Assembly (NCBI RefSeq): GCF_963921235.1
Contig: NC_086097.1
Span: 14,508,001-14,572,000 of the forward strand
Direction of reading: 5' to 3'
From: Mobula hypostoma
Taxonomy: Eukaryota
DNA: 64,000 nucleotides
A program made the translations under genes and the position numbers. Of this stretch, positions 866 through 55,752 are shown piece after piece (position 1 is the first letter of the stretch; each line of letters starts with the position of its first letter). The notes beneath the pieces were generated by a model. That model had not been told where the DNA came from. It saw only the letters and a list, made by a program, of their open reading frames with translations, and searched no databases.

Positions 866-1411
866 TTAGTCACTGGTGCTAAACTCACAGATAAGAAAAA
901 AGGTCACACTGCTGTAGCTTACTTGAGGCCAAGTGACGTCCAAATAACCAAGTGGAGAACAATCCAATATATTGCACAAATGACTTAGGATTTGTTTCTA
1001 TGTACTGGCATTTCTTTACAGTTTACCAATGAACAATTTCATAATGTTCACAGGTCTCCCACACCATTCTGTAGTCCCAATAAAGAACTGTTTCTTCCAG
1101 TGATATTAAGCTTAGAGATGGCATCACAGAGCTGGGACCCTGGTATTAAATCTCAGGCTCCCAAGGCTAATCTGTGAACATGTCCACAGTTTTTTTTAAG
1201 TGTTTACAGTTCCATGTACACATGCATGCACAATGACAAACCTAACTTAATCACATAGATATCATGGTCAAGTTAGTTTCAACCTCTGGATCACTAGCTC
1301 AGTCATAAAGCCATCAGACCACAGTATCCCTGATCGTATGCAATCGTATATAAGCATGAAATATATACAAACCATTTGATGTTGCGATGTTTGCCGAGCT
1401 TGGCAGTTAGC

Positions 1412-1455
1412 TTTCAGACATTTCATCACCAGTCAAGGTGACATCCTCAGTGCGC
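1412..1455 (-). ncRNA. Minimal type I hammerhead ribozyme motif (family 2)
   Basis: Minus strand reads gcgca-CTGAGGA-t-gtcacc-ttgact-ggtgat-GAAA-tGTC-tgaaag. Core boxes are intact; the ACGT palindrome has decayed to ATGT and stem I is weakened. Confidence 0.65.
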
Positions 1456-1782
1456 GGTTACTGGTGGTTCTCTCTGGGAGTGCTCGTGTTTCTATAGCAC
1501 CCCCCCCCCCCGTTCAGTTGCCTTAGTCCTGATTGGCTCCCCCTTCAGTTAACCTTTGAATTCTATTGGCTCTTAGGAGTTCGTAGATGGCACCTATTTT
1601 GATATGTTTGTTTACAGAGTTATCAGAAGAGAACTATGCTTCTAAAAACACTTTGAAGAGCCAAAGAAATGTGAGCCAATAGAATTCAAAGGTCAACTGA
1701 AGGGGTAGCCAATCGGGACCGAGGCAACTGAACGGGGTGCTATATAAACACAAGCACTCCCAGAGAGAAACACCAACAACTG

Positions 1783-1824
1783 CTCTCTGGGGATGTCACC
1801 TCGGCTGGTGATGAAACGTCTGCA
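1783..1824 (+). ncRNA. Hammerhead motif with mutated core (CTGGGGA)
   Basis: CTGGGGA-t-gtcacc-tcggct-ggtgat-GAAACGTC-tgca. The conserved A6 of CUGANGA is replaced by G. Confidence 0.55.
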
Positions 1825-2373
1825 AGCTAATTGCCAAGCACAACATCAAACGCCTCAACCCAAGCCACCAATATTCACCACCATCATATACAAACCATGG
1901 TTGTGTTCATTAGTATTGAGAGTCTACATTGCAAAGCCACACACCTCCAACCCAAATTTCACAGACAGAAGCCCCTTAAAGGGGAGCACAAGTCATCAGA
2001 ACACTTTTTCAGAACAGTAATGAAGATATTACATCTAGTTGAACAGAGAAAATCACAAAAATGTCTCTTCAGATGCTTTTGCAATGTACTAGTGGCTGAA
2101 TGCAGTATTAATCAGCCGCTCACTTGTATCAAAGTGCTATGTAAATGGTAACGCATTGCCAGCTCTTGACTGGACAGTGTGAAATGAATAATTAATGCCA
2201 GTTTGTTATTGCCAAGAGTGAAAACATAGAAGTACATGTGCTTCATGTTTACTTACTAAACAAATACCCAGCTTCATTCAGGTGAAACACAGTGACAGCC
2301 TTATTAAGAAACGATTGCATTCCTAGAAAGTGTCCTGTATTGTGATTTTCTATTATGCGGGGCCATGTCTTAA

Positions 2374-2640
2374 GAGTCATAGAAAAGTACAACAGAGAAA
2401 CAAGCCTTTCAGCCCATCTAGTCCATGCTGAGCTATTTAAACTACCTATCCCTATCCACCTGTACTGGGACCACAGCCCTCCATACCCCTACCATCCATA
2501 TACGTATCCAAACTTTGCTTAAAAACTGAAATCGAGCTCGCGGGCACCACCTGTGCTGGCCGCTCATTCCACACTCTCACCACCTTCTAAGTGAAGAAGT
2601 TTCCCCTCATGTTCCCCTCAAATTTTTCACCTTTCACCCG
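2374..2640 (-). mobile_element. CR1/HER1-like LINE 3' end fragment
   Basis: Reverse-oriented CR1-type 3' sequence (cattccacactctcaccacc...tgaagaagtt; gagtcatagaaaagtacaacag). The first 150 bp are closely repeated at 3785-3935. Confidence 0.75.
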
Positions 2641-3004
2641 TCTGCTTGTCTGTCAAGAAACACAAGTTACAAAAAATAAATGTTCTGCTTATTTATGTAC
2701 TTCTCTCAATAAAAATTGTGGAAGAGCGAATTTTATTCTGTACCTCAAAAATTTTGGAATGAGATTTATAAATTTCACGATATTAAACCTGATTCTGATC
2801 CTAAATTCTGTTCCCGTAACCCAAGCAGTCAGAATGCAGGGGTCCTCATGTTCAATAACTGAGAAAAGATGTGGACATTCTGGTCCTGTTTTGCCATTTT
2901 AACAAGCATACCAAAAGGTCAAAGTGCACATGTGTACCAGATGAAAGGACATGACGGTACCCAACAGTGTCTATTACTCAGTTTTTACTTACTAATCAGG
3001 AATG

Positions 3005-3073
3005 CAATTAGCCACATCTGGATTCTCAATTAGCCACATGTGGCTATTGTCTAATGTATTGGACAACGCCGCA
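3005..3073. mobile_element. hAT-Charlie (MER3/MER33-like) terminal remnant
   Basis: tagccacatgtggcta palindrome followed by tattggacaacgccgcag, resembling the MER3-type terminal inverted repeat. Confidence 0.45.
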
Positions 3074-3784
3074 GTAAATCAACTAATGAGCAGCATTTTG
3101 TAGGATCAAGCAAGTGGCTCAAAGGTTAAACCTTTGCCATATGCTCCCTTATTCCAGGGGTCTGTGGATCGCCCTGACGAGGTTGGGCTAATGTGAACAA
3201 AAATACCTGTCAAGTAGGTGGCATCGTTACACAGATCCTTTCACTGTATCTGCGCTAATGAGCAGTGAGAAAGGAAAGCTGCCGTGGACACACACTTAAC
3301 AATCAGTCAAAGGGCAAGGCCAGTATTAGAGTGTGGAACTACACTGGCGACATTTGCAAATGACCTAAATAAAAATCGGCAGTGACAGAGCAGCAATGCA
3401 GATTAAACTGTAAAAAAAAAGGGCACAGCATAGAACATCTTCGGTGTCAGCTTGTTTTAATATTTCTTTTGATCCACTGAGTTGCTTATTAAATCATTAA
3501 TGGCTTTGAATATGACACCACAATTGTGACTTGAATATGGATTAATAAGCATATTATCCAGGAAAGTAGTATGCACTTTACTATAAGCAGTTTAAAAAAA
3601 AGCGTCTGGCTATGTATCGCAGCCTTGTAATTCTACACAGCAGTGCCATAAAGCTTATGAATAAAGGTTATCAGGTTAACATGTTGTCTCCTTCCCTCCC
3701 TCCGCAGCTACTGCCTGACCCGCTAAGCATTTCCAGAGTCCTCTGCTCTCACCGCAGCAATTTCCCGTTTCAGAACCTTCCTCA

Positions 3785-8635: not shown

Positions 8636-9257
8636 AGGAATAGGGTTCCCCTGGTCCTCACCTACCACCCCACCAGCCTCCGGGTCCAACATATTATTCT
8701 CCGTAACTTCCGCCACCTCCATCGGGATCCCACCACTAAGCACATCTTTCCCTCCCCCCCCCCGCATTCCGCAGGGATCGCTCCCTACACAACTCCCTTG
8801 TCCATTCGTCCCCCCCATCCCTCCCCACTGATCTCCCTCCTGGCACTTATCCGTGTAAGCGGAACAAGTGCCACACATGCCCTTACACTTCCTCCCTTAC
8901 CACCATTCAGGGCCCCAAACAATCCTTCCAGGTGAGGCATCACTTCACCTGTGAGTCGACTGGGGTGATATACTGCGTCCGGTGCTCCCGATGTGGCCTT
9001 TTATATATTGGTGAGACCCGACGCAGACTGGGAGACCGTTTTGCTGAACATCTATGCTCTGTCCACCAGAGAAAGCAGGATCTCCCAGTGGCCACACATT
9101 TTAATTCCACATCCCATTCCCATTCTGACATGTCTATCCACGGCCTCCTCTACTGTAAAGATGAAGCCACACTCAGGTTGGAGGAACAACACCTTATATT
9201 CCGTCTGGGTAGCCTCCAACCTGATGGCATGAACATCGACTTCTCTAACTTCCGCTA
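8636..9257 (+). pseudogene. Penelope-like ORF C-terminus: Cys-rich linker and GIY-YIG endonuclease, one frameshift
   Basis: RNRVPLVLTYHP...KHIFPSPP, then a frameshift in the C-run at about 8750-8763, then AFRRDRSLHNSLVHS...PGTYPCKRNKCHTC...FTCESTGVIYCVRCSRCGLLYIGETRRRLGDRFAEH...VATHFN...RLEEQHLIFRLGSLQPDGMN. The RT core is missing. Confidence 0.92.
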
Positions 9258-9554
9258 TGGCCCCACCTCCCCCTCGTACCCCATCTGTTACTCATTTTTA
9301 TGCACACATTCTTTCTCTCACTCTCCTTTTTCTCCCTCTGTCCCTCTGAATATACCTCTTGCCCATCCTCTGGGTCACCCCCCCGCCCTTGTCTTTCTTC
9401 CCGGACCTCGTGTCCCATGATCCTCTCGTATCCCCTTTTGCCTATCACCTGTCCAGCTCTCGGCTCTATCCCTCCCCCTCCTGTCTTCTCCTATCATTTT
9501 GCATCTCCCCCTCCCCCTCCAACTTTCAAATCCCTTGCTCACTCTTCCTTCGGT

Positions 9555-9592
9555 TAGTCCTGACGAAGGGTCTCGGCCTGAAACGTCGATTG
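9555..9592 (+). ncRNA. Minimal type I hammerhead ribozyme (family 1), core intact
   Basis: Stem I tagtc/gattg; CTGACGA at 9560-9566; stem II agg-gtctcgg-cct; GAAA at 9580-9583; palindromic ACGT in place of stem III. Predicted cleavage after GUC (C9587). Confidence 0.85.
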
Positions 9593-10011
9593 CACCTCTT
9601 CCTATAGATGCTGCTTGGCCTGCTGCGTTCACCAACAACTTTGATGTATGTTGCTTGATGACAATCCAGTCCTTGCCTTTGACTTCTGCAATGGACGACT
9701 TGTTTGACTGCAACTTGCCTGCTTAGCTTATAGGAATTGTACCTGTGGTTTTGAAAATCCTTTGTGCTTTAGAAATTGTTTTCAATTTGGAAAACTTCTA
9801 TAAAAGATAGAAATCCTCTGTGAGTTTTAAATGTGGTTTAAGAATTTTATCTAAATTAAACATATATCACTAAAAATAAATGAACTGTGTTTAAACTACT
9901 TTGGCAGCTGGAAGTATCTTCTCCTTCGTGGGGGGGACGGGGGCAGAAGAAGTGGTTGAGGAAGCTATATTAACAACATTTAAAAGGTACATGAACAAGA
10001 AAGCTTTAGAG

Positions 10012-14384: not shown

Positions 14385-14739
14385 GGTAGTGGTGAATATT
14401 GGTGGCTCGGGCTGAGGTGTCTGATGTTGTGGTGTTCGCCGAGCTTGGCAATTAGCTTGCAGACGTTTCATCACCAGTCGAGGACATCCCCAGTGTGCAC
14501 TTGTTGGTGTTTCTGTCATGCAATAGACGCCATCTACAAACCCCGAAGAGCCAAAGAAATGCAAGCCAGTAGAATTCAAAGGTCAACTGAAAGGGTAATT
14601 AATCAAAACCGAGGCAAGTGAGCAGGGATCTATATAAACACGGGAAACACCAACAACTGTGTACTGAGGATGTCACCTTGATTGGTGATGAAACGTCTGC
14701 AAGCTAATTGCCAAGCTCAGGGAACACCACAACATCAAA
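14385..14739. mobile_element. Palindromic Penelope-like element with two hammerheads, copy B (opposite orientation, internally deleted)
   Basis: 14385-14513 is the reverse complement of about 1767-1885. 14644-14739 is the inverted partner of 14423-14513. The spacer shares gaagagccaaagaaatg and agaattcaaaggtcaactgaa with copy A. Confidence 0.85.
14660..14701 (+). ncRNA. Minimal type I hammerhead ribozyme (family 2), core intact
   Basis: Stem I tgta/tgca; CTGAGGA at 14664-14670; one extra t; stem II gtcacc-ttgatt-ggtgat; GAAA at 14690-14693; ACGT palindrome. Predicted cleavage after C14697. Confidence 0.8.
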
Positions 14740-15034
14740 CTGGGAACGGAGATAGGAATTTGGGAAGTCCTTCTGCCTGAAACTTCACAGCTCCTAAAAG
14801 GGATGCAGACAGCTGTACTGGTGAGGCTGTGCATTACTTTGGAGTTCAGAGGGCTGGGAGTTAACCCTCATCTCTTCAGCTCTGAGTTTGAACACTGTGC
14901 TGCTCATGCCTTAGTCTAGAGTGGAAGCACATTCACAAGGCCACAGCCTGGGCTACCCCTGGTAACAACTCTCATATGTATGTGCAGTCGATGATAAAGA
15001 TGTCCCACTGTCTTTAACAACGAAAAGGGAGCCT

Positions 15035-18620: not shown

Positions 18621-20197
18621 GAGTCCTTTGGCTATTGTTCTGCTTTGGGAAGTCCTGGCACCAGGAAAGGCCCTACATGAATGCACAACTGCACCTTGGA
18701 ATTACCGGCAAGAGAACTTTCTTTATTGGCACAAAATAATGGGAAGAAGGTGAGAGGACGCATAAGAAGTGCCCTGGGGCCAGTACCTGATTAGCAGCAT
18801 AAAGCAAAATGGAGTCCCTCGAAGCTTTTACATCACAATGTCATTATCAGCAGAGCAGAAGAATGCTTACAGCTTGTTGCTTGCTTGTGTTGCCTCGATA
18901 TTGGTTTTACCATTGGTTTTCTTAACCCTGAGCCCAAAGCTTCAAATTTATATGACACCAAATCATCCACTCTGTTACCTCACTGCACCCACCACAATGT
19001 GCATGGCTGCCATATCTGCCAATATTGTCATCCTTCCTCCCTCATTAGGAACAGTTCTTTTGGTGATGGTTTAAAAAAAACTGTACTCGAAACTCCTTGT
19101 CGTGAATCTGTCATCTACTCCCATGAAGAAAGACAAATCCCTGAATTAACAAGTCATCTGGGGGGTGCCTCTGACAAAACAGAACTCCTTCCACCTCACG
19201 CTGTGGTGTTAACCAAGACTCTGTGCTCCACAGTTGGAGGTAGCTTCAGAAATGTTATTGCTGCTATATCACTCCCTTCACGTGGGGAGACAGCAGATCC
19301 CACTGAAGTATTTTGAAAACTCAAGTCACCAAGTGAGGAACTCAACCTGCAGTGTTCTGACTTAGAGGTACGAGGACCACCAAGTGTGCACAGCTGAAGA
19401 GGCAAATTCCTGTAGATGAACGAGAGGGAGGTATGGTGGGGGTGGGCAGAAAGAGCTAAGATAGACCAGGCAGGGGTAGAAATTCACCCAAGATTGGGTC
19501 ACTTTTATGCTGTTTGTATGGACTGCTTGGGGGGGAAAAAAATCAAGCAATTTATTCCTTGCCGCACCCAGCCCATCTCAGCAGAAACATTTTCTGCTGC
19601 CTACGTCCGGAAGACAAAAATTGCAGATTGAATTATCTTTAAATGATATCCATTTTATTGTGTCACTTGACAGCAGCCGGGTCTGAGTTAACATGTTCTG
19701 TGTGAGTGAGGTTGCGAACTCAAGCTGTGTTAAATTGACCTGACAATTCTGCGAGATAGCTCTGTTATTTAGCCCTGCAGTTCATTAGTTTAAATCTGCC
19801 ACTTGCTGTTGGCAGGCTCTAATTTCACACCTCGTCTTACTGACGTTGCATTCATTGCGGTAATAATCAAACAATTTCCACCCCCCTCATCTCTTCCTTG
19901 TGGAAAGCGTTGGATAATAATGACAGGAGGAAAAGCTGACTTAATATCAACATCAAACAAGATGCTTGCGCTATTGTTTTTTTTGGAATGGGTGACCACT
20001 TTATTTGTTGTTATTCATCGTTAGTAAAAGTCTCCAAAGGGTCAGAAAAAAGTCTAAAAGCGCCTGTCTCCAAACTCTTGGGATCTGTGACAAAATGCCC
20101 ATTTAATTTGCAATATGTAAGCATTTAAAGGCAAATCATTTCTTGTGAATGGATTTTCAACAGAGGTAAAACTTTAGCGAACGCTATTTATACAATG

Positions 20198-20712
20198 TGG
20201 GGTGCCACGGTAACGTAGAGGTTAGTGTCACGCTATCACAGTTTGGGGATTGGAATTTGGAGTTCAATTCTGGCTGTCCCTTGTAAGAAAGTTTGTACAT
20301 TTTCTCTGGGAACCAAGTGGGTTTGCTCCGGTTTCAAAGGTTCAAAGATTCATAGTACATTTATTATCAAAGTATTTATGCAGTATACAACCCAGGGATT
20401 CATCTTTCCCACAGACAGCCACGAGACAAAGAAAAATATCAACCCCCCCTCCACCCCCACCAGATGCAAATGGCAACAACAAAGAAAGAGTGAAAAACAC
20501 AGAATATAAAACCCGAAACTGGAAGAGTCCAGGCATATTCAGTTCAGCACCGTGTTTGTTATCTGCAGGCCACCCCAGTTTCCTCTCATAGTCCAGATGT
20601 ACTAACTAGTAGGTTAATTGGTCATTGTAAATTGTCCTGTGAATAAGCTAGGGGGTCAAGTGAGTGGTTGCCGGAAGGGCCTGTCCATTCTGTATCTCCA
20701 AACAATAAACAT
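20198..20712 (+). mobile_element. V-SINE interrupted by a minus-strand insertion (20336-20574)
   Basis: SINE head at 20198-20335 resumes at 20575; ccggtttc / ccagtttc flank the insert. Confidence 0.75.
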
Positions 20713-20854
20713 AAAAGTAAACAATCTGCTGGAGGAACTCAGCAGTTCAAGCAACATTTGTGGGATGAAAAGAATGGTTGACATTTCAGGTCAAAAGCCT
20801 GCATCAGGTTATTTCTGCACAGAGGGAAAAGATTCTTCTCTGGAAATATACAAA

Positions 20855-21168
20855 TTTAATTTTTATTTCATTTATGTATTTAGTGATACATCGCACTGTA
20901 CACCCTACTAGCCCTTCGAGCCGCGTGGCCCAGCAATCCCCAACAAACCCGATAAAATCCTAGCCTAAATCATGGGACGACTTAGAATAGACCAATTAAC
21001 CTGCCCAGTACGTCTTTGAACTGTGGGAGGAAAGCAGAAGACTCAGAAAACCTGCGCATTCCACAGGGAGGACGTACAGAGAGTCCTTACAGAGGATGCC
21101 GGGATTGAACACCAATGCCCCCGAGCTGCAATAGCGTTGCGCAAATCGCTACACCACCGTGGCACCCC
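20855..21168 (-). mobile_element. Full-length V-SINE
   Basis: Reverse complement of the family sequence (gtacgtctttgaactgtgggaggaaa...gggattgaac...ctacaccaccgtggcacccc). Confidence 0.85.
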
Positions 21169-23445
21169 ACCGATTCTCCAGATCAGGGCCAGCTGACAAC
21201 CCTTCTTGCAACATTCAGTCAGTTTTGCAATATTCAATGTGCCACATTTAATTTCTAACTTTTCAACCAGTTCCTTCTAAACAAAAACCGCAGACCAAGC
21301 AGGGTTTCACCATGTGTTAGTTAATCGTCATGGGTACTACACTTGCCATATATAATCTGGTAGATCCTATTTGCCCTGTCAGATGCCATTTACTCCCTCA
21401 CACCCCATCATGAATCACTTTATCTTTCTAACAAAAAAAATAAAGAGAAATAAAATTGTTTTCTTCCTTGAAGTCACGTTAAGTTTTTTTTACCCAGATT
21501 GGCTCACAGCAGAGTCCTGGAGATTAATTTATGGTTCTTCAAGTGGAGTTCCCAGAGGGTTGGCAACACTTGACTAGCATAACTAGGCTGTGGCCAAGTT
21601 TAGATTATGACATGGTCTATTAGTCTGGCTGTATCAATTTTTATTCCAATTTGTCTAGCTTGTTTGCACCAGCAATCCCTCAGCATGAACATCGCTCTCA
21701 AACCCCATGAGTTCGACCCCCATGCACTTGAAATTCAGAGACAATCTCATCAAAGCAAATGACTGTTCATTGACATCCAGCCTAAGCACAGAAAACAGGC
21801 CTCTTCCAAAAATATTACATACTGTACCTCCAGAATTTCCCATTAAATCTTCAAGCATTTCCCCCTGTATATTTAATCCAATACAGAGAGAGAAACAAAA
21901 TATTAAGTTTTAAGTTTATTCATAACTCTGGGTAGAAATATTTCTGAACACATTTTAGATCTCTGGTTTAATGGTACACAGCATGAGAGAGAAAAAGAAT
22001 TGTATTATTTCTGAAGTTGTAATGTGAAGCAATTTCCTATTATACAATTCTGCCAAGCACGTGTTACTAGAGATTTAGCGTAAATATAGCACCTTGCTAA
22101 TTAGATTTTCTCTGAAAGTCTGCGTATCTTTCCTCAACCTCAGTGAAAGTGATTAGTGTGGTTTCATGGTAAATGGAATCTATCTGGGAAGAAATTGATC
22201 CTAAGAGGAGATAATCCTCTGATTCTCTGTCGTATCAATACGAGCCAACACGGAGGAACTGTTTTGTTTGAGTGTGTGTGTGTGTAAGTGTCAGATCCCA
22301 GATAAATGGTACCTGGTATCAGTTCATCTCCAATATTTACTGAGTGATTTATATAGTTATCAGACAGAGGAATTGGGAAACAGCTGCTTTCTATCGGTGT
22401 GCTCACTGTACCAGCGCAGTCCTGTTATCAAAAGCACATTCCTAATCAACAAGCATCTGTTCCTCGTTTTCATTTACAGACATGTTGTTATTTATGCATT
22501 AATCTTCACCTCTAGCAGAAATACAGCTTCATGGCAGCAAGCCTCGACAGATAGAGATGTACCAACGCCTTGAGGACAGAATTAATGACCCTCACCCCTC
22601 CTATAAAGTCGAGGCACACACCCCCATATTAAAAGCCAGCCTTCTCTTTTAAGTCAATTTTATTTTTCTCTAAAAAACGTACAACCCTCCAACCTTGTCT
22701 CTATTAATTCTAAGGAAGCCTGTTTTGGTCGGAGTTGAGTGCATGAGGGGACATTTTCACTTTTAAAACAAATCTTTGCTGTCCACGCACACAATGCACC
22801 CTTAAGCAACAGATTAATGACCCTATTCTCACCTTTACAAATGCTAATCCTTCACTGTTCAACTTAAATGCCTCTGTTTAACGCCTCAACAGTTCACTAA
22901 ACACTGAAGTCTAACCAGTGTAAATGTCATATTCTGCCAACTCACCCTTCACGATCTTAAATTAGATTGAAAACTCGACACAGGGGTTAAATGGTTTCAA
23001 TTTATAGGGCAGAGAGAGAACCAAAGTCTAGCATGGAAACATTCACTTAAGTGTACAAACCAAGTAAATTTTAGGTCCTTGTGGTTAAATGAGGTTGCCC
23101 ATATCTCTATATACTGTTAGCTATTCATCCAGAAATGTTGTTGGAACACCGGAAGGGGTGTGAGCCATTATTCACTGGGGACTCACTCTGCATCCACATG
23201 TACAATAACCATCAATGCAGAAAGGCGACAGTAACAATGGTAAATGAACAAGTTAAATAGAAAGCTTCAGACAAGCAAGAGAAGGCTGCATCCATCTTGC
23301 CTGACCTACAGGAATCCATTACCCTGCAGTTTACTGGCCAGTATAATATTGAATAAATATGGGCTGTTTTCTCTGGAACATCTGAGGCTGAGGAGAGACC
23401 CAGTAGAAGTTTACGAAAATACAAAAACACATTGATAATGTAGAT

Positions 23446-23870
23446 ACAGGAGATTCGGCAGATGCTGGAAATCCAGAGTAATACACACACAATATTAGAG
23501 GCATTCAGCAGGTCAGGCAGCATCTATAGAAAAGAATTAACGGTTGATGTTTCAGGCTGAGATTCTTCATCAGAACTGGAAAGGAACACCTTCTCATTCT
23601 GGCTTCTTTCACCTTCCTTTCCAGTTCTGGAGAAGGAATCTGATAGGAGAGGAGAGTGGACCGAGGGGAAGGGGAGAAGGATGAGCATCAGTGGGATGTG
23701 AGGCCAGAGCGGGGAACAGAAGTGGGGGGGGAGAGATATTTTTTGCCGGAAGGAGAAATCGATAAATCGATGCTCAGGCCATCAGGAAGGAGGCTACACA
23801 GATGAAATATGAAGTGTTACTCTTCCACCCTGAGAGTGACCTTACCATGGCAGGAGGCGGCCATGGGCCA
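23446..23870 (-). mobile_element. Older Penelope-like fragment: end of GIY-YIG ORF plus hammerhead terminus
   Basis: 23770-23845(-) decodes to KVTLRVEE*HFIFHLCSLLPDGLSID, homologous to 9165-9245; 23446-23580 is the terminus. Confidence 0.8.
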
Positions 23871-34895: not shown

Positions 34896-37065
34896 AGCTC
34901 AAGGACAGTCAGAGAAGAAATTTAGGACATGCTGCTCAATGTAAACTAATTGCAAGAACAAGAAGCTGAGGTGTGGAGACCCATCCTGTGACTGAACACA
35001 CACAACAATGGCACCTGTGACTGCTCCCTGAGTACAGGGACGGTTAACCAACACTTTGCTGATGACGTCAATGAGAAGACATGTCCACATCTGAAAACCA
35101 TTCTCTCGGGCAAACTGTTTCTCCCGAATCCTTAAAGAGGTTTTGTCACCTCTCCCTTAAGGAGGTTTTTCTTTGTTGTTTGCTTTCCTTGAATATGTTA
35201 AAAAAAAAGGCTCAGCTGACTTAGCCTTCAGCTAAGTATTAAATGTTTTCTGTAGAGTTACTGGAGAAAATTGCTATTGAGGTGGACTGCCTGGAAGAGG
35301 TGCAAGCTGTCAGAATATTTGACTGCCAAATGGTGGCCTTGTTCTAGCCCCCTTTGCTGGACATTGCTCCCTGGCGCTCACTGGGATTTTCCAAAACCGT
35401 GGGACGGATGCTGATCGACTCCAAGTAGTTCCACGGGTTTGGTGGGAAATGGCAGAGCGCAGAGAAAGGGTTGCCAGTGGATTAGCGGTAAGGAATGTTC
35501 TGGTAAGGGGTAAGGATTGGAGGCAACGTGACGATGCAAAGAAGCTAGCGCCAAGCAAACGGCACAGAGGCAACTGCGTTGCTTCCGCCAAATGATTTCT
35601 TCTCCCCTTTTTCACGCTCCCATTCAAATGGCCGGCAGCCCTGCCAGCACCTCAGCCCATGGGAGCTTTGTCCATCAGCAAGCTCAATGTTTAGGCAGAC
35701 AACATGTGTGCCCAGGGAAGAAGCTGGACTGCAGCCTGATCGTGTCCTGGATCAATACCAGTGGTGGGCACCTTCCCACTGGCAAACCGCTAGTCAGAAC
35801 CCCAGAGCTGAGCAGACGAACACTGCAACAGCTTTTATTATTCTGACAGCTTTTTTTCCAAGGGAAGCTTCTCCACTGCCACCTCTCTTCCTGTCTCAGT
35901 ACAGTAAGGTACAACTCAAGTTCAGGCACTCAATCAGAATTTTGGACTGTGCAAACCCAGGTCGGCTCAGATTACAGAATTGTTGCTTTTTTATGACTAG
36001 TGGCGTTCTGCCATGGTTAAGTGTTGAGCTCCTGGCTAAGCTTCTAAATTTGAGATTTTACTTTTATGTTTTTACATCACATATATATTTTAAGAGAATG
36101 TAAAAGGCCTTTTTTTTATTAAAATGAACTGTTCCCTATGGATTTTCAACAGAGATCCAAATCCGGAGAGTAGTGGAATTTCGTAATTTATACAGTATTA
36201 GTCATTTTGATCTGTTTTTACTACATACATTAAACTTGTGGCCTATCAAATTCCATGAAAAACTCTCCAGAGTTATTCCCCAGGATTTTGTACTCTGAGC
36301 TCCCTCCACACACAACGCCCCCCCCCCACCACTAATCCACTTAGAGCCAGGGGGCTTTCTTTAAAGGAAAAGATCTGAGGGTACGTCTGGCATTAATTGT
36401 GCAGAGGGCGGGAAACTGGCCCATTTTCAACCAGGTACCGCGCTGGCATCCGAAAACCAGCTGGGGCCAATCGTGGGGTTTGGCTTTACTGTTCCTAATT
36501 TAATACAGGGTCACGACAATCTGCAGGAGCGCAGCAGGGCTGTCACCGGATGGTGTTACAGCATTCCACAACACCTCTCCTTCTCACCATCACTCATCTG
36601 CCTTGCACCCGTGACCGAGGAGCTACAGAACATCGAGCTTTGATTTCCCCTTAAACCTGGGATTCAGGTCCCTAGCTCCTCACCAGTGTTGCCAGTATGG
36701 ACGCATGCAGCATGCAGACAGGCTCTACAACACACTCATCTTGAGTGGATTGAAGGGCCTGTTTTCCCCACCAACACCTCCCTTCTTCAACCACCCACCT
36801 ACACACTCGGGGCAATTTACAGCGACCAACTAACCTATCAATCACACATCTTTGGGGTGGGTCGTATATGGTGACATATACGTACTTTGATTACAAATAT
36901 ACTTAAAATTTTTGAACTTTTCTCCCACCAGGTCATCACTGAAATTGTAGAGGATGGGGAGTGTCAGCTGTTCCTGGAGTCTTCCTGGTCTGTCAGGTTT
37001 AGCATCACCTACTAACCCACTAAGGAAACACCGGACTACTAATTCAAACACAAAAGAATGCAGAT

Positions 37066-37392
37066 GCAGAGATTTTGTAGATGCTGGAAATCCAGAACAA
37101 CACACAAAATACTGTGAGGAATAAACAGTCTACATTTTGGGCTGAGACCCTTCATCAAGACTCCTGAAGATTTTTGGCCCGAATCGTCGACAGTTTATTC
37201 CTCTCCGTAGACGTTACCTTGCCTGCCGAGTTCCTCAAGACTTCAGATGCTGGAATCTGGAGCAACTCAGTGGGTCAGGCAGCATCAAAAGAGGGAAATT
37301 AATAGAGGTTCACCAAGACTCAAATCAATCCATCAGAAGGGTCTCAACCCCAAACGCTGAGTGTCCATTTCCCTTCATGGATACTGCCTGTC
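37066..37392. mobile_element. Two adjacent fold-back Penelope-like terminus pairs
   Basis: gaggaataaacagtctacattttgggctgagacccttcatcaagact is inverted against ggcccgaatcgtcgacagtttattcctc. A second decayed pair follows at 37243-37392. Confidence 0.75.
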
Positions 37393-38359
37393 CCACTATT
37401 TTCTTGATATTTGTTGCTTATTTACTTATTCATTATTATTATTTCCTTCATTTTGTATTTGCACAGTTTGTTGTCTTTTGCACACCAGTTGAACACCCAA
37501 GTAGGTGCAGTCCTCATGGTTTTTATTCTATAATGGATTTACTGAGTATGCCCGCAAGAAAATGAATCTCAGGGTTGCATATGGTGACATAAAAAGTACT
37601 TCAATAGTACATTTACTTCAGACTTTGAACTTTCCCCCAGCGCCTCTTGTGCTGGACGCCTAATTCATCCCAGTTACACCACCGGGCCCCAAGCACTGGC
37701 ACTTGTTCCTTGCCAGGGTGGTATCACTGCACCGAAGAAGGCAATCACTTTCAAAGCTCACAGGAGGAGTGCAGGTCCTTAGTGGCTGAGTTGCAGCCCA
37801 TGAGACGCAAAGGCAGCAAGGTGCAAAAACAAGTCATCAGATTGCAAGTTCCAGCCCTTAGCTTGCATGTCACAGAGGGACGAAGGGAATCCACTCCCCA
37901 GCAAGGATGACACCACCCGCCAATCAGACTTCGACAGGCATTAACCTTCAGCTAATGCTTGCCCTAACCATACAAAATAAGAGAAATAGAAGAAAGAGGA
38001 GCAGAAGAAGGCCATTCCACCCTTCAAAGCTTGCTCTGCCATTCTGTAGGATCTTGGCTGATCACCTATCTCAACATTAGTTCAAATTTTCAAAGTAAAT
38101 GTATTATCAAAGTACATATCTGTCACCATATACAACCCTGAGATTCATTTTCTTGTAGGCATTTAGAAGTCTCTTTCAATGACTTCTGTGGGTTGGTGTT
38201 CTATATTCTGTGTTTTTTACTCTTTGTTTTCTCAGTTTGTGCGATTCTTTTTTTTGTATGTTGGGGGAGGAGAGGTACCTCTAATTTTCACCTTTTCTGT
38301 TTCTCCAATCTCATTTGATTTTTTCAAAAATTTGGCTTATGTCAGTCAGTCTACCTTTA

Positions 38360-55103: not shown

Positions 55104-55752
55104 CTCATTATTAGGTAGACCTGTACACTTGCTCATTGATGCAAATATCTAATCAGTCAATCATGTGGCAGCAACTCAATGCATAGAGGAACGCAGACAT
55201 GATCAAGAGGTTCAATTGTTGTTCAGACCAAACATGGGGAATGGGGAAGGAAGAAATGGAGAAGAAATACGATCTAAGTGACTGAACATGGAGTAATTGT
55301 AGGTCTTCTGGCATTTTCACGCACAACAGTCTCAAGAATTTACAGAGAATAGTGCAAAAAAAAAACTCAAAACATCCAATAAGGGACAGCTCTGTGGGTG
55401 AAAATGGCTTGTTAACGAAAAAAGTCACAGGAGAATGGCCAGACTGGTTCAAGCTGACAGGAAGGTGACAGTAACTCAACTAACCACACGTTACAGCAGT
55501 GGTGTGCAGAAGAGCATCTCTGAATGCACAACATGATGAACGTTGAAGTGGATGGGCTACAGCAGCAGAAGACTACAAACATACACTCAATGGCCACTTC
55601 ATTAGGCACAAGAGGTAACTAACAAAGTGGACACTGTGTGTATACATATGAAAGCCCACACATTGGGTTGTTGCTACATGATTGGCTGATTAGATATTTG
55701 CATTAACAAGCCGGTGTAGAAGTCTACCTAATAAAGTGGCCTCTGGATATAT
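55100..55752 (+). mobile_element. Internally deleted Tc1/mariner-type DNA transposon
   Basis: Inverted ends (ttattaggtagacctgtacac...tgcaaatatctaatcagtcaatcatgtggcagcaac against gttgctacatgattggctgattagatatttgca...gtgta..tctacctaataa). Transposase remnant RMARLVQADRKVTVTQLTTRYSSGVQKSISECTT**TLKWMGYSSRR at about 55432-55572. TA-rich flanks. Confidence 0.8.

Follow-up and report, generated by a model that had tools for sequence, protein, structure and literature searches.

A probable head-to-head pair of truncated Penelope-like element ends within a single target-site duplication in Mobula hypostoma

In the stretch of Mobula hypostoma DNA that we analysed (the window, 64,000 nucleotides), a 510-bp unit with inverted arms consists, in all likelihood, of two 5′-truncated 3′ ends of one Penelope-like element (PLE) family, placed head-to-head within a 13-bp target-site duplication (TSD). 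As a whole, we consider it highly probable that this stump was made in one retrotransposition event by the family's own RT/GIY-YIG protein and that this copy (copy 1) has since decayed neutrally. The palindrome was likely built afresh on landing and not copied as a self-contained element. Copy 1 is an ordinary, decayed remnant of an abundant family, and its arrangement has been known for PLEs since at least 2013-2014.

The features of copy 1, and of a second insertion further along the window (copy 2), are as follows.

1363-1375, no strand: left copy of the TSD, AT-rich; base 1375 can be assigned to the element or to the TSD
1376-1648, minus strand: longer arm without tail, the 5′-truncated 3′ end of a PLE (ORF end and pLTR)
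1417-1450, minus strand: left-arm hammerhead motif, minimal type I, with an intact CUGAGGA core
1568-1648, minus strand: what is left of the PLE ORF C-terminus, from the part that follows the GIY-YIG domain, with one in-frame TAG
1649-1655, no strand: 7-nt filler at the head-to-head junction, non-palindromic
1656-1885, plus strand: shorter arm with tail, the 5′-truncated 3′ end of the same element
1709-1748, plus strand: CCAAT (1709) and TATATAAA (1741), promoter-like pLTR motifs read from the sequence
1787-1820, plus strand: right-arm hammerhead motif, minimal type I, with CUGGGGA as its core and a disrupted stem I
1793-1885, plus strand: 31-codon frame through the tail, opened by an ATG where hammerhead stem II begins; putative ORF N-terminus
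1851-1885, plus strand: one-sided 35-nt PLE tail, no counterpart in the left arm
1886-1898, no strand: right copy of the 13-bp TSD, exact repeat
14389-14740, no strand: copy 2, second head-to-head insertion of the same family, by sequence match
14389-14517, minus strand: tailed arm of copy 2
14522-14740, plus strand: tail-less arm of copy 2, starting inside the ORF end

Arms, junction and target-site duplication

The exact 13-mer ATATACAAACCAT stands at 1363-1375 and again at 1886-1898 (100% match), precisely at both ends of the element, and a null of random 60-nt window pairs spaced 510 apart gave an exact repeat of at least 13 in 1 of 1000 pairs, in agreement with the perfect 13-bp TSD of the original prediction. 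Contigs of four sequencing runs, from four organisms, were placed on positions 1000-2300 (2538-3459 contigs per run), and their summed depth was 295-23,000 inside the element, unevenly distributed, compared with 4-13 in the covered flank bins, figures that are not to be read as copy number. The family is a high-copy linear element that continues into the ORF beyond either cut: its loose ends lie at 1648 (40-73 contigs per run, continuing into the ORF), at 1656 (67-119) and at 1839 (89-132). From 1886 on, the loose ends are heterogeneous and A/T-rich (46-62 contigs per run, agreement 0.41-0.43), and such A/T-rich sequence behind the tail end would fit an AT-rich target preference of the family.

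Since contigs exit the unit at 1648 and 1656, the arms end there with 7 nt between them; matches to the family end at 1648 and resume at 1656, and the 7 nt belong to neither arm. A source for this filler was sought in the near flanks, where the left held none and one 7-mer at 2130 was deemed a chance occurrence. The 510-bp unit with inverted arms that had been predicted therefore stands, but not its symmetry, pictured as arms of about 190 bp around a spacer of about 100 bp: the true arms are 1376-1648 (minus strand) and 1656-1885 (plus strand), on either side of the 7-nt filler, and 1851-1885 is unmirrored. This tail is present in copy 2 as well and in the family contigs that run past 1375 (41-61 per run).

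When aligned, the arms are identical at 155 of 175 bases (about 89%), and thus differ at 11% of sites, with three indels besides. The left arm holds a 15-bp deletion and an 8-G expansion, and the right arm, which is more strongly 5′-truncated, has a 12-bp deletion after 1839. Among the 20 mismatches, 13 are transitions and 7 are of the CpG type. At the homologous positions 1517 and 1728 both arms carry the same minority letter, 86-88% of the family depth in run X1 reading otherwise; this shared 12-14% letter fits one source and, along with the one TSD, bears out the single insertion event that had been proposed. The CCAAT at 1709 and the TATA-like TATATAAA at 1741, both reported before, were found again in the sequence, and the TATA equivalent of the left arm is mutated at 1492.

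The left junction was bridged in three of the four runs, with 0, 8 and 25 differences in 438-486 flank bases for organisms A, B and D, respectively. Pieces over the right junction reach 22-30 letters into the element, under the 31-letter threshold, and the left junction alone was counted. No empty site was seen in the four runs, among 15 of 592 joints, and scans for family motifs in viral contigs (one scan) and metagenome contigs (two scans) gave 0 matches, with no full-length partner recovered.

The ORF end in the centre and the hammerhead motifs

The centre of the unit had been taken for a non-coding spacer, free of any ORF. Most of that spacer is 1568-1648 on the minus strand, with the reading FLEA*FSSDNSVNKHIKIGAIYELLRA, and the claim fails on two counts, as 1648-1568 (minus strand) matches the end of a PLE ORF and a 31-codon ATG frame is found at 1793. 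The spacer peptide, with X at the stop, was queried by phmmer against 1.84 billion proteins and had two matches, P0002 and P0003. P0002, from a tapeworm, is made up of PLE-like C-termini in tandem, and its first-match E of 9.4e-11 is inflated by the four repeats; a search with its repeat unit yielded 11 proteins (658-1017 aa), of which 10 were used (P0025, with other domains, was left out). RVT_1 was present in all three proteins scanned for domains, and GIY-YIG in two of the three, just under the cut-off and directly upstream of the motif.

By tblastn, all 10 proteins match the window from exactly 1648, with 43-52% identity over 27-35 aa. A profile of the same proteins places 1648-1568 at the top of the window with an E of 1.8e-4 (the reversed-window control reached 0.063 at best), an E-value that is biased because the protein set derives from the spacer peptide's own match. 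With the 43-aa spacer peptide itself, none of three candidates from a word-index protein search held, and Pfam gave 0 matches. As read by hand translation, the contig continuation past 1648 is a check on the ORF identity that is independent of the protein search: the loose end (agreement 0.70-0.77) reaches 30 letters beyond that point and translates as AQANTKQARE, continuing the reading frame of the FLEA codons, and in P0024 the corresponding residues are ANTKQARE. Likewise, contigs that leave the unit before 1656 run into sequence of the ORF end (IEIDAIYEP), not into the centre of this copy. The ORF-end match in 10 of 10 proteins, together with the motifs in the arms, upholds the Penelope-like origin with pLTR hammerheads suggested in the original prediction.

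The other phmmer match, P0003, was dropped as a low-complexity tandem repeat that looks like a chance match. P0002 is annotated as a tapeworm hypothetical protein; it contains about four tandem copies of a PLE ORF end and probably represents a gene model drawn over repeated PLE fragments.

On each strand of copy 1 there is a CUG-R-N-GA ... GAAA-Y-GUC motif whose stem II has 6 bp, and the motif occurs in all four arms of the two copies in the window. The predicted hammerhead on each strand is thus present as a motif, but not as an intact ribozyme: the left one has U at 15.2, a stem I of 2 bp and an extra U preceding its stem II of 6 bp, and the right one, with its predicted cut site at 1820, has A6G at 1790, where A makes up 93-97% of the family depth and the family core is intact. 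The scan with Rfam hammerhead models that had been called for gave 0 matches at gathering and no hammerhead among the 10 matches at E up to 10, the sole Rfam matches being generic miRNA hairpins far below their gathering scores. Minimal hammerheads (min-HHRs) have been defined by a relaxed descriptor, and are described as cleaving poorly and needing a same-strand partner (PMC4209133).

The unit has a folding energy of -301.6 kcal/mol (z = -24.9), which none of 100 shuffles equalled, and the long hairpin foreseen for a read-through transcript is supported by this predicted fold. In the read-through RNA of either strand the predicted pairing probability of stem II is 0.0; it is 0.5-0.8 in most single-arm RNAs and 0.05 in the shortest right-arm RNA. 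Both hammerheads would accordingly be masked in the read-through hairpin, as far as the fold predictions go. As there is one hammerhead per strand, no dimer is available in cis, and copy 1 is predicted to be inert, neither cleaving itself nor moving as a unit. By analogy with the anole Poseidon element, in which the ORF start is placed in the same way, the frame 1793-1885 is likely the ORF N-terminus, and this layout, with an ATG at stem II, may point to the Penelope/Poseidon clade, a placement for which it is suggestive only.

Origin of the head-to-head arrangement

Copy 2 is joined through a 4-nt filler and has no TSD that we could find, the longest exact direct repeat at its ends being 4 nt. 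The tail-less ends of the two copies stop at one and the same base, but the junction and both arm lengths are different. Because it shares the layout and neither the junction nor the arm lengths, the palindrome would be an outcome of insertion and not a fixed unit. In both copies the shorter arm has the tail and the longer, tail-less arm has extra ORF sequence, so that neither arm is a plain copy of the other.

Such structures have been described for EN+ PLEs. An inverted 5′-truncated copy with a one-sided tail of 30-40 bp is reported for PLEs (PMC8557442), as are inverted pLTRs with TSDs of 8-10 bp, and PLE copies with and without a TSD (PMC3846280). What we found agrees with this description: derivation from an ORF with RT and C-terminal GIY-YIG, a minimal type I hammerhead motif within the pLTR, an inverted 5′-truncated copy placed head-to-head in two of two copies, a tail of this size at one end alone in both, and a short TSD that is not always present (13 bp in copy 1, none in copy 2). 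The units in PMC3846280 and in the Fig. 2 legend of PMC8557442 resemble copy 1 in the head-to-head inverted 5′-truncated copy, and further in the 30-40-bp tail at one end, the short TSD, the TATA-like motif of the pLTR and the ORF start within the pLTR. Unlike them, copy 1 has two truncated pieces that are both under 300 bp, a TSD of 13 instead of 8-10 bp and a non-palindromic junction.

Dual min-HHRs about 100-700 bp apart on opposite strands are also on record (PMC4209133). The Schistosoma PLE remnants of that study share with copy 1 a min-HHR without helix III, an extra nucleotide before stem II and the opposite-strand pair, the motifs being 337 bp apart here. The present case differs in its vertebrate host, in a stem II of 6 bp with G10.1-U11.1 and in the mutations of both motifs in copy 1. 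The Poseidon element PAc of Anolis carolinensis (PMC11167929) is similar in layout, with an ATG at the start of stem II, an AT-rich target, a cleavage site some 25 nt past the start codon and two 3′ endpoints that bound the tail.

In regards to mechanism, the PAc protein cuts and extends both strands in vitro, and two internal RT start sites bound the tail of this element, whose ATG lies at stem II (PMC11167929). For copy 1, the family enzyme would have cut both target strands in a staggered manner, 13 nt apart, and each target 3′ end would have primed reverse transcription on element RNA, one from the outer start site, which takes in the tail, the other from the inner one; both cDNAs would have stopped early and would then have been joined via the 7-nt filler. 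This two-primer step, which draws on two copies and on an in vitro study of another species, is plausible, though it falls slightly short of probable. We would also tentatively extend it to head-to-head PLE insertions in general, which may arise by double target-primed reverse transcription: each strand of the staggered cut would possibly serve as primer for a separate cDNA, begun at either of the two RT start sites. The origin of tandem and inverted PLE structures has been called an open question (PMC8557442), and in the main-text literature searched no statement of a double target-primed model for the inverted pLTR was found. If true, non-nested arms, a fixed tail-less endpoint and non-palindromic fillers would be a genomic signature of double priming that could be counted over the many stumps of the family, and the long-unexplained inverted pLTR would be accounted for. 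With both ends, the junction and the TSD within 500 bp, copy 1 is handy material for setting two-strand priming against fold-back.

The mirror arm of the same PLE stump could also have been made by fold-back self-priming, with cDNA or an antisense strand as template, after which the endonuclease would have removed the tail on one side; this alternative contests the two-primer step only and not the identity of the unit. In rotifer PLEs, palindromes seen where inverted copies meet have led to a fold-back proposal (PMC3846280), the tail has been ascribed to EN-mediated resolution (PMC8557442), and the minority variant common to both arms is what copying predicts. However, we consider it rather unlikely here: no stable hairpin forms at the junction of either copy (-2.3 and -3.2 kcal/mol), and the tail-less ends of both copies coincide to the base, which is what a fixed RT start predicts. 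The arms are non-nested and the junctions non-palindromic in two of two copies, which favours two primers over fold-back.

The stump reading also has to be weighed against the original prediction, a non-autonomous, retrozyme-like palindromic family that is transcribed, cleaves itself and retrotransposes as a 510-bp unit. The clean TSD around the whole unit, the strong predicted hairpin and a 1648-to-1656 joint found in every run speak for such a family. This joint was present in 3, 1, 2 and 2 contigs of the four runs (eight, the letters between not given), which we read as longer head-to-head copies or the orthologue; most joints labelled as opposite strands near 1566-1617/1656 were set aside, since linear copies give them in view of the 15-bp deletion of copy 1. 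The prediction nevertheless appears very unlikely, as the centre is ORF sequence into which the family continues at both cuts, in tens of contigs per run at 1648 and at 1656 up to 119, and as the sibling copy differs in junction and arm lengths, in place of a fixed monomer copied as a unit. The junction was uncrossed among 32 of 13,370 pieces, from which copy 1's own centre is absent too, and the joints are many and different. The animal non-LTR retrozymes of bioRxiv 10.64898/2026.07.22.740005 are similar in having a type I hammerhead in pLTR-derived sequence and no intact ORF, but they are described there as head-to-tail tandems with same-strand hammerheads, whereas copy 1 is head-to-head, keeps ORF sequence and has one hammerhead per strand, inverted, with stem II unpaired in the predicted read-through RNA. 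The likeness to retrozymes is therefore lost with the lack of same-strand tandem hammerheads. Two independent insertions, or a recombination of opposite copies, that came to lie head-to-head by chance would suit a very abundant family and the 11% difference and three indels between the arms; given the single exact 13-bp TSD around both arms, the same 12-14% minority letter in each and the repetition of the layout in copy 2, we find this highly improbable. The chance that the unit derives from a DNA transposon, whether as a MITE or as a foldback element bearing long terminal inverted repeats, is practically negligible: it does have inverted arms and a TSD, but its ends are not inverted repeats, owing to the 35-nt one-sided tail, it includes a retroelement ORF remnant and a variable junction, and its TSD is neither TA nor 8 bp. 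In annotation, such stumps, which resemble MITEs, miRNA hairpins and retrozymes, belong filed as PLE insertions.

Other repeats in the window

The 3′ end of a second, unrelated PLE family lies at 8740-9600 on the plus strand, with a GIY-YIG ORF (Pfam E 1.2e-4) that is 95% identical to a Mobula hypostoma predicted protein and a min-HHR-like core at 9560; 23506-23866 matches this second family. Single hammerhead-like cores were seen at 23573 (minus strand) and 32792 (plus strand). At 33-224 there is an inverted pair with 78-nt arms (82%) and a hammerhead-like core at 131 (minus strand), unrelated to the family studied here and probably left as a stump by some other PLE family. The repeats at 37110-37369 are inverted and nested, and their hammerhead-like sequence is degenerate. 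Longer-range inverted pairs with arms of 42-74 nt, at 20197-21170, 36859-38162 and 55108-55734, are probably opposite copies of common repeats. A Pfam scan of 80 of the 210 ORFs of at least 70 aa gave one match, which is repeat-like. The minus-strand stretch 5624-5980 matches Pfam ALKBH8_N (E 1.3e-4), a model that presumably often marks C-terminal fragments of LINE RTs.
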